From Escherichia coli (lineage in GTDB: Bacteria > Pseudomonadota > Gammaproteobacteria > Enterobacterales > Enterobacteriaceae): a stretch of 64,000 bases of DNA. The translations under genes and the position numbers were made by a program. The stretch lies in assembly GCF_003334785.1 (NCBI RefSeq), contig NZ_QOWV01000014.1; one strand, given 5' to 3'. Positions 48,987-50,978 of the stretch are shown here, one piece after another. How positions within the stretch are numbered: position 1 is the stretch's first letter; each line of letters begins with the position of its first letter. The notes under the pieces are model-generated. The model did not search any database, was not told the origin of the DNA, and saw nothing but the letters and a program-made list of their open reading frames with translations.

Positions 48987-49541
48987 ATGAATAAAAAATT
49001 AATGTATATATTCGCAATTTTTATAGTTGCAGCAATTACCTGTATTAGCCAACCCAAGAAAACGACGTTGCGTGATAAAGCCATGGTGAATTATGCCTTT
49101 GATTATTTAAGCTCACCGGGCAGTCTTCCATTCACCACGGCAGCCACGGAGCTTTCCGCGATTCATGGTCACTCAACGTCGCAATATCGCCTTGGAGAAT
49201 TTTATCTTCATGGTAGCGACGGTAAACCACTGGATTATACACAGGCGAGATACTGGTATGAGCAATCAGCGGAACAGGAAAATCCACGCGCGCAAAGTAA
49301 ACTGGGGTGGATCTACCTCAAAGGTCTGGGGGTCAAACCCGACACCCGTAAAGCAATTCTCTGGTATAAGGAAGCAGCTGAACAAGGGTATGCTCATGCT
49401 CAATATACTTTAGGTTTGATCTACAGAAATGGCTCAGGTATTAATGTTAACCATTATGAATCTCAAAAATGGTTAAAACTGGCCGCCAAACAACATTACA
49501 AAAATGCGGAAAGATTACTTGCCGGGCTTCCCGCACATTAA
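48987..49541 (+). CDS. ybeT: Sel1-repeat (TPR-like) protein YbeT with N-terminal hydrophobic segment
   Basis: Track ORF 184 aa, [25 protein letters not shown]...; repeated ...A(Q/E)...LG..Y..G.GV..D....A..WY..AAEQG... Sel1 signature. Confidence 0.88.
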
Positions 49542-49550
49542 CGTCGACTG

Positions 49551-50978
49551 TCACCCGAACAGATGGAGTATTTTCCCTATCAAACCAGCAAAGATAAAAA
49601 TATAGAAAATAATTTTAATGATGCCCAGACAGCCTGGCCCACCATCGTCAACGGGCATTGGCTGCGGTTGCGGCTCCGGTTCAACAGTTTGCTTCTCGGT
49701 AAAATTCGCCGCCTGAATTAATAATCGACGAATAATTAATGCTTCCAGTGGACAACGATTTTCTGCATCAAGGCGGCTCACAATCGGCATTAATGATTCT
49801 TCTGTAGGTTGGCAGGCCTGCACTAATTGTTTGGCAACTAGATATAATGGCCATAAGGTATGTTCTGTATCACGCGTGAGTGAGATCCGCGGCTTACGTC
49901 CTTTGTGCAAAACCATCTCGACCAGTGAACGCCCCAGCGCAGAGAGTTTTTCATCGCTGAGTATTTCGTATAAATGAAAACGCGTACGGGCGCTGTCGCC
50001 GGGGACATAAAGTAGCGGTTTTCCCTGATCGTTAACCAGATCACGCGCTTCAATCATCATCACCAGTAATGGGTAATAATCGACCCGATGCTGACGGCAC
50101 CATTGCAACATTAAAGCATCCGCCTGGGTGGAGGGATACTCGCGCCAGTAGTCACAAAGTTCTGCCAACAGGCTTTCGCCTTCTCCACAATAGACGCGTT
50201 GCGCGTATTCATAATAAGGCGCATCTTCATTATCAGGTTCAGTTTCCCGCCATGACTGGGCGTAATCCAGAAGTTCGGGGATATCCAGGCGACCTGCGCT
50301 ATACCAGCGGAGTAAATTTCTGTGCAGTTTTGCATCATCGGGGATAATCACTGCGCGATGTTGCGCTAAATACAATGTCAGCCATTGTGGATGCGATGAC
50401 CAAATCCGAGCGAACATTTGGTAAAAATCGATGGTGTCATTTTGCACGGCAACGGGCAGATGCAGAATGGTCTGGAAGTTAAAAACATTCCCCTTCGCAA
50501 TGGCATATAAAAAGGATTCCAGTTCTTCTTCGTCTATTTCCCCGGTATTTTCCTCCTGTAACCACCGCAATCTTTCTGCTAATAACACCACGCACTCGAA
50601 GGATAAATGGGCAGTGTTCATGGCGATTGTGCACAGCGACCAGCGTAATTCATCAATCTCCTCCATCGAGCAATAATTTAATTGCTGAATGAATCGCTGC
50701 CAGGCGGAGGGCAGAAAACGTTCACTATCAGAGGCAAGTAACGCACGAAAGGCGAGCAGAATTTCATGTTCTGCTACCTCATATTCTTCTGGTTGCCAAA
50801 CAGATTTAGCAGGCGACTGCGCAATCCGTAGCGCCTCCTCATACGCCTGACGAAGTTGTTTAAAACCCTGCGGATCGGTTTCTGGATGAAAGGACGGTAA
50901 CAGCGCCAGATAAGCGCGGCGGATAATATCGACGTCAGTCGTTTCCTCTATATCGAGGATCTTCCAGCAATTTTTCAT
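49551..50978 (-). CDS. djlB: Tail-anchored J-domain co-chaperone DjlB (YbeS)
   Basis: Track ORF 475 aa, [50 protein letters not shown]...; hydrophobic C-terminus [24 protein letters not shown]; ATGA overlap with ybeR. Confidence 0.9.

Follow-up and report, generated by a model that had tools for sequence, protein, structure and literature searches.

ybeT and djlB of Escherichia coli form a tightly packed convergent gene pair

It is well established that convergent genes of E. coli can be tightly packed or overlapping and that their transcripts can overlap at the 3' ends. In the survey of Conway et al. 2014 (PMC4161252), 276 of 370 convergent operons had overlapping transcripts, and the overlap averaged 286 nt. 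Genome-wide 3'-end and Rho mapping placed 51.5% of Rho termination regions antisense to genes (PMC7815308). Terminator-less overlapping 3' UTRs of convergent genes are a recognized excludon layout (PMC7154746), and head-on polymerase collisions aid termination between convergent genes (bioRxiv 10.1101/2022.10.23.513370). A preprint counts 704 convergent gene pairs in E. coli, places a REP element in 207 of them, and retains 383 REP-free pairs after filters that drop distances that are zero, negative, or larger than the largest REP spacer (bioRxiv 10.64898/2026.03.23.713779). The number of dropped pairs is 114 of 704, and the share of overlapping or abutting pairs among them is unstated there. 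The genes ybeT and djlB, and the spacing between them, are already known from the annotation of K-12. Their junction was analyzed here in a 64,000-nucleotide stretch of E. coli DNA (the window), and all coordinates refer to this stretch.

Junction geometry and the frequency of tight convergent pairs

The ybeT coding sequence (48987..49541, + strand) encodes a 184-residue Sel1/TPR-repeat protein and stops with TAA at 49539..49541, as given by the ORF list and the RefSeq annotation of identical or near-identical strains. The djlB coding sequence (49551..50978, − strand; ORF list and RefSeq) encodes a 475-residue tail-anchored J-domain co-chaperone and stops with TGA ('tca') at 49551..49553. The 9-bp spacer at 49542..49550, CGTCGACTG, was read directly from the sequence and separates the two stop codons. 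RefSeq records for K-12 and other strains carry the same two gene names and the same 9-bp gap. The sequence, the ORF list, and RefSeq therefore agree with the original prediction that the two stop codons are 9 bp apart. These data identify ybeT/djlB as a tightly packed convergent pair, two real genes whose stop codons lie within about 10 bp of each other.

A terminator does not fit into 9 bp, so a complete mRNA of ybeT or djlB extends into the 3' coding end of its partner. The original prediction that transcription from each side enters the opposite gene is upheld by this geometry. The junction has no REP element, and 9 bp is too short to hold one. A consensus terminator scan reported nothing at the ybeT/djlB junction. 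Its sole nearby + strand match, at 49803..49822, is weak, and the total number of matches did not exceed that in shuffled sequence. A search of positions 48800-50300 against Rfam at E ≤ 1 gave no match. The neighboring convergent pairs differ from ybeT/djlB, as had been claimed. In the 59 bp between hscC and djlC there is a REP-type hairpin at 46712..46674 (−24.8 kcal/mol), and the 69 bp between ybeQ and ybeL contain a hairpin at 52836..52859 whose position agrees with a published 3' end from Term-seq.

The exceptional tightness implied by that contrast did not survive comparison with a larger sample. Spacers of 9 bp or less, as tight as ybeT/djlB or tighter, were found in 10 of the 27 convergent pairs (37%, 95% CI 19-58%) in a 250-kb section of the K-12 annotation (600-850 kb) that surrounds the window, and the whole-genome figure may differ from this local one. 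The spacers of these 27 pairs are bimodal, measuring either −4 to 9 bp or at least 40 bp. The 10 tight pairs include four overlaps or abutments and a second 9-bp pair, ybdD/ybdH (hcxA). Other members are entS/fepB and ybdR/yldA (3 bp each), ybdL/ybdM and modC/ybhA (0 bp each), and fepE/fepC, nei/abrB, and pnuC/zitB (−4 each). The explanation that best accounts for the whole is that ybeT/djlB belongs to this common tight convergent class and has no special device at its junction, and we consider this likely.

Conservation and origin of the junction

The 9-bp spacer was found with ungapped matches in 4265 of 5426 E. coli genomes. It is present in E. coli K-12, O157, W2-5, M1, and UTI 2/0 (strains 96-100% identical) and also in E. 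whittamii, Escherichia sp. E1V33, and Escherichia sp. MOD1-EC7003. These three species were found by a contig scan that also gave distant Pseudomonas loci, and dS between E. coli and the three species reaches 0.69. Two more distant metagenomic relatives, L020 and L021, came from a protein search, and their spacers are 10 bp. The spacer sequence drifts among relatives and the length holds at 9-10 bp. Length variation of the junction among strains had been proposed as a check, and the length is invariant at 9 bp in E. coli and the three other Escherichia species.

Both stop codons occupy the same position in the four species. Comparison with the three other Escherichia species gives dN/dS values of 0.06-0.12 for ybeT, whose stop position is conserved, and 0.12-0.16 for djlB. 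These ratios indicate that both genes are under purifying selection. The 12-residue C-terminal tail of YbeT is conserved among relatives. DjlB aligns end to end with its paralog DjlC at 50% identity, the C-terminal membrane anchor included, and this full-length alignment argues that the 3' end of djlB is not truncated. The sequence comparisons indicate that the junction is old and stable and is not a recent breakpoint.

The flanking genes are arranged as two cassettes. Cassette 1 contains the ybeU-djlC operon (46730..48885, − strand; djlC 46730..48181, ybeU 48178..48885), which is divergent from ybeT. Cassette 2 contains the ybeR-djlB operon, and its first gene, ybeR (50975..51682, − strand), encodes a DUF1266 protein. 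The ybeQ gene (51840..52823, + strand) is a longer Sel1 paralog of ybeT, and its RefSeq start lies 6 nt downstream, giving a 325-residue protein. The djlC and ybeU products are paralogous to those of djlB and ybeR, with the YbeU/YbeR identity at 59%. Residues 55-181 of YbeT are collinear with residues 56-179 of YbeQ at 36% identity. A diverged tandem direct repeat spans 47501..51392, where 47501-48595 matches 50298-51392 at 71-77% identity with a period of 2797 bp. This repeat shows that the cassettes arose by tandem duplication long ago. PADLOC returned PtuA for the Sel1 proteins (E = 0.0022 and 0.00013). These matches are marginal, with no matched stretch passing alone, and they were rejected as spurious. 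PADLOC gave no match for DjlB, YbeR, or HscC, and no defence-system assignment.

The 2797-bp period and the collinearity of YbeT with YbeQ make it plausible that the ybeT/djlB junction is an ancient tandem-duplication boundary. Duplication of a ~2.8 kb unit composed of djl, DUF1266, and Sel1 genes would most likely have created the junction. The edge of the unit would then have been placed shortly after the djl stop and within the Sel1 gene, so that cassette 1 kept a short ybeT that abuts the 3' end of djlB. DNA similarity is not visible directly downstream of the djlC and djlB stops, as expected at such divergence.

The strongest competing account has no duplication boundary at this site. It supposes that ybeT was always short and that either a terminator-bearing spacer was later lost or ybeQ grew by Sel1-repeat expansion. 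Sel1 repeats align in many registers, so a gain of repeats by YbeQ would be easy, but the best-scoring YbeT/YbeQ alignment is collinear and ends at the YbeT C terminus. Occasional spacer collapse would fit the bimodal K-12 spacers, and spacer length is labile at this locus, with hscC/djlC values between 40 and 186 bp in the relatives. However, no relative examined has a longer ybeT/djlB spacer, and the repeat period together with the gene offsets puts the unit boundary at the junction. The comparisons made here are compatible with both accounts. We regard this one as possible but unlikely, and the ancient duplication boundary is preferred. The Pseudomonas relatives were considered as an outgroup for the ancestral Sel1 length and set aside because no Sel1 gene adjoins their cassettes.

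Part of cassette 2 has been lost in some strains. In about 577 E. coli genomes, deletion has removed ybeR, the 5' part of ybeQ, and djlB except for a 3' stub (49551..49678, − strand; annotation of strain 2/0), which is kept with an intact junction. The estimate of about 577 is derived from the 4265 genomes that cover at least 80% of 49400-49678 versus the 3688 that cover at least 80% of 48900-50100. Two independent cassette 2 deletions each stopped short of the junction and spared 126 nt or more at the 3' end of djlB. Rearrangements observed at the locus are an IS1-mediated loss of ybeT through ybeR in strain J6, an IS1 insertion in strain ET650, and the 2/0-type deletion.

Termination, expression, and alternative readings of the junction

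The original prediction held that the junction has no room for a terminator. This is correct for the 9-bp spacer but not for the junction overall, since a hairpin and U-run in the djlB direction lie within the last codons of ybeT. The candidate djlB terminator hairpin (49504..49536, − strand) is located inside the last 12 codons of ybeT and begins 15 nt past the djlB stop. It consists of GUGCGGGAAG, a 13-nt loop, and CUUUCCGCAU, and the 10-bp stem of the isolated hairpin has a predicted RNA folding energy of −11.6 kcal/mol. The U-run (49500..49504, − strand) reads UUUUU and then GUAAUGUUGUUU, and position 49504 also forms the closing G-U pair. The run is encoded by the ybeT codons AAA AAT and is weaker (CUUUAUAG) in L020. 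The hairpin has the stem followed by a U-run that characterizes an intrinsic terminator, but its 13-nt loop exceeds the 3-8 nt of the scan consensus, and the scan did not report it. Its stability equals that of the nearby terminator of ybeL, where Term-seq maps a 3' end. A djlB transcript would meet the 10-bp hairpin and U-run 15-50 nt past its stop codon. The element does not have the form of a bidirectional terminator. The + strand hairpin is followed by AUUAACGUCGAC rather than a U-run, and about 74% of its cells remain paired because the 20 G-U cells turn into A-C mismatches on this strand.

The idea that the djlB hairpin is a selected element was examined and set aside. Pairing is kept in 98.8% of hairpin pair cells among 8 distinct sequences, with one compensatory change. 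However, 40% of trials in which the ybeT tail was synonymously recoded produced a hairpin and U-run at least as good, and hairpin sites of the same quality occur about 20 times per 40 kb of strand. The recoding control and the background density make the hairpin indistinguishable from a by-product of the YbeT peptide. Because 40% of the synonymous recodings do as well, the hairpin is no evidence of selection, and it is classified as a candidate terminator only.

No convincing intrinsic terminator was found for ybeT. The C/G ratio downstream of ybeT is 1.20-1.25 over the first 120 nt, which is roughly the 75th percentile of the window, and the rut-like composition downstream of either stop is unremarkable. 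Because the excess of C over G downstream of ybeT is only mild, Rho use is not predicted from the sequence. The ybeT transcript may be stopped by Rho as an untranslated antisense RNA inside djlB, or it may read through. Read-through would match the behavior of most E. coli convergent operons. Because a gene can contain the termination signals of its neighbor, an unusual mechanism is not implied.

The published maps were searched for ends at this locus. The Term-seq and Rho tables of PMC7815308 list no 3' ends or Rho regions for ybeT, djlB, ybeR, ybeU, or djlC, and ybeQ is the only gene of this island with entries there. The same tables record a Rho region antisense to ybdH (score 8.4) and another antisense to ybeQ (score 13.6). 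The names ybeT, djlB, ybeR, ybeU, djlC, and ybeQ do not occur in the supplements of PMC6131387.

Expression data for the island point to low activity. HscC, DjlB, and DjlC were below the detection limit in a published proteome (PMC8215388). SELEX with the RpoD holoenzyme identified a site in the ybeQ/ybeR spacer, which also carries an H-NS mark (PMC3946193). Because the island is H-NS-marked and the proteins are below detection, mutual interference between ybeT and djlB is probably small in standard culture.

These results bear on the suggestion that the tight junction is a selected excludon or convergent-transcription device, in which mutual interference makes expression of the two cassettes exclusive. 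Complete transcripts must overlap across the 9-bp spacer, and both the recognized excludon layout and the contribution of polymerase collisions to termination provide precedents. The same tightness in about a third of nearby convergent pairs of unrelated genes makes a special explanation unneeded. The 9-10 bp length is kept where YbeT is down to 71% identical and the sequence drifts, but a 9-bp target seldom gains indels, so constant length is weak evidence. Both cassette 2 deletions kept the junction and the djlB 3' end, but ybeT persists without a transcribed djlB in about 577 genomes. Antisense 3' ends or Rho regions are not reported for the pair in PMC7815308, and the undetectable proteins and the H-NS mark suggest that polymerase traffic is low. 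A selected device is therefore improbable. A more detailed version has the junction selected as a switch between ybeT and ybeR-djlB, with the djlB terminator placed in the last 12 codons of ybeT and the stub kept as a ybeT 3' UTR or terminator, or as a small tail-anchored peptide. This version is somewhat less probable again. The original prediction named a conserved junction with no sign of antisense transcripts as grounds for refutation, and by this standard the special-function reading leans towards refuted.

The original prediction also offered a breakpoint, left between the cassettes by a recent duplication or deletion. The tandem direct repeats with their 2797-bp period, the restriction of the YbeT match to the first ~180 residues of YbeQ, and the recent rearrangements elsewhere in the locus (strain J6, the 2/0-type deletion, and strain ET650) would fit such an event. 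However, the copies share just 71-77% DNA identity and 36-59% protein identity, the junction length is the same in 4265 E. coli genomes and three Escherichia species and 1 bp off in L021 and L020, and both frames are intact with signs of purifying selection right to their stops. A recent breakpoint is highly improbable, and the divergence of the copies and the conservation of the junction, as judged from sequence comparison, already refute the word "recent". There is equally little chance of an annotation artefact, in which one ORF or its 3' extension is untranslated and the true gene ends are further apart, because although proteomics of exponential cultures did not detect the proteins and ybeT is short with no assigned function, dN/dS is 0.06-0.16 for both genes, their stops share the same position in four species, the last residues of DjlB are a conserved membrane anchor common to DjlC, and the YbeT tail is conserved.

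Membership in the common tight convergent class remains the preferred explanation. The useful outcome is negative, in that the junction is not rare and did not arise recently, and it matters little. If mutual interference were true, ybeT/djlB would be one more case of cross-talk between convergent genes and might suggest that the two HscC co-chaperone cassettes are used alternately, although no current evidence points there.

Comparison with known convergent systems

The ybeT/djlB layout resembles the convergent operons surveyed by Conway et al. 2014, in which convergent transcripts run into each other. The overlap in that survey was measured and is the norm even where the spacer contains a terminator, whereas the overlap at ybeT/djlB is forced by geometry and predicted from the sequence. 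Bidirectional terminators and collision termination (Ju et al. 2019; 10.1101/2022.10.23.513370) share with ybeT/djlB the convergent setting and a stem-loop near the meeting point. In contrast to bidirectional terminators, the ybeT/djlB hairpin lies within a coding region and has a U-run for the − strand transcript only. Termination by collision is most effective in pairs with high expression (10.1101/2022.10.23.513370), and ybeT/djlB is not such a pair. The excludon review (PMC7154746) depicts the ybeT/djlB layout in panel (b) of Figure 3, convergent genes without an intervening terminator. The term excludon requires a demonstrated reciprocal effect of overlapping transcripts, whereas the likeness of ybeT/djlB is one of geometry.

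A cassette in Pseudomonas palmensis (L014) belongs to the same DUF1266/J-protein/HscC family. Its HscC is 56% identical and its DUF1266 protein 35% identical. The convergence of its J-protein gene and hscC is tighter than ybeT/djlB, with a 4-bp CTAG stop overlap. It differs from the E. coli locus in that the convergent partner is hscC and not a Sel1 gene, the cassette is single, and the J-protein is longer (905 residues).

The closest counterparts are the other tight pairs of K-12. In ybdD/ybdH, entS/fepB, and the others, as in ybeT/djlB, no more than 9 bp separates the stop codons where they do not overlap, which leaves no place for an intergenic terminator. The ybdD/ybdH pair has a Rho termination region antisense within the partner gene (PMC7815308), whereas ybeT/djlB has no 3'-end entry there. 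The other tight K-12 pairs consist of unrelated genes, whereas the partners at ybeT/djlB come from two copies of one duplicated cassette.

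Junction geometry and the frequency of tight convergent spacers

The ybeT gene (48987..49541, + strand) ends in CAT TAA with TAA at 49539..49541, and djlB (49551..50978, − strand) ends in TGA (read 'tca') at 49551..49553. Nine bases, CGTCGACTG (49542..49550), lie between the stops. This stop-to-stop spacing was originally noted from the sequence, and it is borne out by the sequence, the ORF list, and the RefSeq annotation, which has both genes at an identical distance in K-12, O157:H7, W2-5, and M1. Over 48900–50100, the window, which is E. coli, is 99.9–100% identical to K-12 and to many further strains. 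Its gene order on the + strand is hscC(+), djlC and ybeU(−), ybeT(+), djlB and ybeR(−), ybeQ(+), ybeL(−), and leuS(+). The predicted contrast with the neighboring convergent pairs holds. The hscC/djlC spacer is 59 bp and is filled by a REP-type palindrome/hairpin (46712..46674, −24.8 kcal/mol), and the 69 bp ybeQ/ybeL spacer has a hairpin (52836..52859) that coincides with a published Term-seq 3′ end (PMC7815308). The E. coli ybeT/djlB spacer contains a 6-bp palindrome, GTCGAC, that is probably fortuitous because it is lost in the loci of two metagenomic relatives (L020 and L021).

Convergent pairs were counted in the RefSeq K-12 annotation between 600 and 850 kb (AG100 record NZ_LN832404.1, in which ybhC and ybhB are separated by a lambda prophage) by taking every + gene followed by a − gene. 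The spacers of the 27 pairs are bimodal because none falls at 10–39 bp: ten lie between −4 and 9 bp (−4, −4, −4, 0, 0, 0, 3, 3, 9, and 9), and seventeen are at least 40 bp (40, 40, 40, 53, 59, 69, 80, 83, 100, 103, 120, 128, 149, 157, 233, 265, and 281). The tight pairs include the 4-bp overlaps fepE/fepC, nei/abrB, and pnuC/zitB, the abutting pairs ybdL/ybdM and modC/ybhA, the 3-bp pairs entS/fepB and ybdR/yldA, and, at exactly 9 bp besides ybeT/djlB, ybdD/ybdH. The view of the junction as exceptional is not supported, as 10 of 27 pairs (37%, 95% CI 19–58%) have spacers of 9 bp or less and are equally tight or tighter. The impression of rarity arose because ybeT/djlB is the sole tight pair among the six convergent pairs in the 64-kb window. 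Genome-wide, E. coli has 704 convergent pairs, 207 with a REP element; filtering zero or negative distances and distances above the largest REP spacer removed 114 REP-free pairs, whose overlapping or abutting share is not given separately, and left 383 (bioRxiv 10.64898/2026.03.23.713779).

Age and origin of the junction

The paralogous cassettes, ybeU-djlC with ybeT and ybeR-djlB with ybeQ, form a diverged tandem direct repeat (47501..48595 versus 50298..51392) with a constant 2797-bp period and 71–77% DNA identity in the best segments. The YbeR and YbeU DUF1266 proteins are 59% identical, and the Sel1 proteins YbeT and YbeQ are 36% identical. The J-domain proteins DjlB and DjlC share 50% identity from end to end, including the C-terminal membrane anchor, so the djlB 3′ end is not truncated. 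Exactly 9 bp separate djlB from ybeT in E. whittamii, Escherichia sp. E1V33, and Escherichia sp. MOD1-EC7003, where the hscC/djlC spacer is 86, 59, and 186 bp, respectively. Protein searches identified L021, which has both cassettes (YbeT 82% identical), and L020 (YbeT 71% identical), each with a 10-bp spacer. Among relatives, the hscC/djlC spacer ranges from 40 to 186 bp; ybeT/djlB stays at 9–10 bp, and its sequence varies by lineage (CGTCGACTG, GGTCGACTT, CGCCGACTG, AGTTTCTGAC, and GTTAATTCTA). Across E. coli and the three Escherichia species, maximum pairwise dS is 0.69 for ybeT and 0.42 for djlB, dN/dS is 0.06–0.12 and 0.12–0.16, respectively, and both stop codon positions are unchanged. 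The low dN/dS and fixed stops show that ybeT and djlB are genuine genes under constraint right up to their ends. At least 80% of 49400–49678 is present in 4265 of 5426 complete E. coli genomes. All eleven sampled E. coli rows, with identities from 100% down to 95.7%, cover exactly 279 bases and therefore contain no indel. Thus, the comparison of strains revealed a constant 9 bp in E. coli, with 10 bp only in L020 and L021, and the diverged copies and the 9 bp kept across four species refute a recent duplication or deletion breakpoint.

An ancient boundary may nevertheless survive from that proposal. The 2797-bp period places the boundary of the repeat unit where ybeT meets djlB. The starts of ybeT and ybeQ are offset by 2853 bp, and in the top-scoring alignment YbeT runs collinear with YbeQ (YbeT 55–181 with YbeQ 56–179), which extends about 145 residues more. 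The period, offset, and alignment make a duplication boundary at the junction plausible. The unit copied in this ancient tandem duplication would have joined djl and DUF1266 to the first half of a Sel1 gene, with its boundary just past the djl stop codon. Later ybeQ expansion, or loss of an earlier ybeT/djlB spacer, is a possible alternative. No Sel1 gene that could act as an outgroup adjoins the Pseudomonas homologues of the cassette. The duplication is older than the divergence of all relatives found.

Transcript ends and expression

The prediction that there is no room for a terminator is correct for the 9-bp spacer, but a terminator need not lie there. RNA folding locates a candidate djlB hairpin inside ybeT (49536..49504, − strand). 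It consists of GUGCGGGAAG, a 13-nt loop, and CUUUCCGCAU, begins 15 nt past the djlB stop, is directly followed by UUUUGUAAUGUUGUUU in the − strand RNA, and lies wholly inside the last 12 codons of ybeT. The isolated hairpin has a stability of −11.6 kcal/mol, comparable to the adjacent ybeL terminator with a mapped 3′ end (−10.5 to −12.5 kcal/mol). Pairing is kept in 79 of 80 pair cells from eight distinct sequences; seven of ten pairs vary, one of them by a compensatory change from U-A to C-G. In twenty cells the pair is G-U, which becomes an A-C mismatch on the + strand, making the hairpin specific to the djlB transcript. A consensus terminator scan missed it, and the 13-nt loop is atypical. 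A control scan of both strands of 40000–60000 found about twenty hairpin-plus-U sites of equal or greater stability, a density that gives a chance of a few percent for one to fall within about 60 nt of any chosen point. Synonymous recoding of the last 17 ybeT codons gave an equal or better hairpin and U-run in 40% of 1000 trials. These two controls indicate that the hairpin is largely a consequence of the YbeT peptide sequence, and the predicted djlB terminator is plausible but unproven. On the + strand 3′ of ybeT, the only hairpins are weak, A+U-rich, and not followed by a U-run, and the C/G ratio (~1.2) is unremarkable. We infer that the ybeT transcript ends by Rho-dependent termination or plain read-through.

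Adams et al. (PMC7815308) report no Term-seq 3′ end or bicyclomycin-sensitive region for ybeT, djlB, ybeR, ybeU, or djlC. In the same data, 51.5% of Rho termination regions are antisense to genes, including one (Rho score 8.4) antisense to ybdH of the 9-bp ybdD/ybdH pair and a strong one (Rho score 13.6) antisense to ybeQ. The ybeQ region and Term-seq 3′ ends of the − strand ybeL transcript lie at 52721..52860 and ~400 nt further into ybeQ; thus, neither the 69-bp spacer nor its hairpin keeps ybeL transcription out of ybeQ, the neighboring cassette gene. Conway et al. found 3′-end overlap in 276 of 370 convergent operons (mean 286 nt; PMC4161252), which makes convergent 3′ overlap the rule at any spacer length.

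In proteomics of growing cells, HscC, DjlB, and DjlC fall under the detection limit (PMC8215388). The divergent promoter regions 48886..48986 (ybeU/ybeT) and 51683..51839 (ybeR/ybeQ) are A+T-rich (G+C 0.37–0.40 in 500-bp bins), and the latter is listed as an H-NS-marked site for RpoD holoenzyme (PMC3946193), which suggests laboratory silencing of the island as a whole. An earlier SlyA-overexpression study was the basis for selecting candidate SlyA-responsive genes, ybeT and ybeU among them, for reporter assays (PMC7417354). Low expression accounts for the absent 3′ ends at ybeT/djlB; it also means that polymerase collision and antisense transcription are unlikely to have strong effects in standard conditions. 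Collision-driven termination is reportedly best for highly expressed pairs (bioRxiv 10.1101/2022.10.23.513370). The proposed built-in antisense interference is possible in that the geometry allows it, but no available data point to it. The ybeT/djlB junction, already known and annotated, is ordinary for the E. coli genome and of low interest.

Deletions at the junction and Pseudomonas homologues

A deletion like that in UTI strain 2/0 is present in ~577 complete E. coli genomes, calculated as those with at least 80% of 49400–49678 (4265) minus those with at least 80% of 48900–50100 (3688). The deletion takes the whole of ybeR together with most of djlB and the 5′ part of ybeQ. It spares ybeT, the junction with its 9 bp, and a djlB 3′ stub of 126 nt that is annotated as a pseudogene fragment in strain 2/0 (window 49551..49678; L002, the 2/0 locus, 8652..9117). 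L020 has only the ybeT cassette plus a ~220-bp djlB 3′ remnant beside ybeT (4556..4790) that is still in frame: its insertion of 12 nt preserves the frame, and its membrane-anchor codons are intact. Translation from an internal ATG would yield a predicted 35-residue tail-anchored peptide. The two deletions are independent, and both end close to, and spare, the junction. These two events are mildly suggestive, though weakly, of ybeT using the djlB 3′ stretch as a 3′ UTR. In strain J6 (L003, 8088..9049), IS1 is flanked by truncated ybeT and ybeR and djlB is lost, and strain ET650 (H1, NZ_CP100936.1) has IS1 within the queried ybeT-djlB stretch.

Tight convergence also occurs in Pseudomonas, where the partner is an hscC-like gene whose product is 56% identical to HscC. 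In both Pseudomonas palmensis (L014, 3470..3473) and P. entomophila (L013, 8676..8682), a homologous operon of DUF1266 and a long J-protein converges on this gene; the stops overlap by 4 bp (CTAG) in the former and by 7 bp in the latter.
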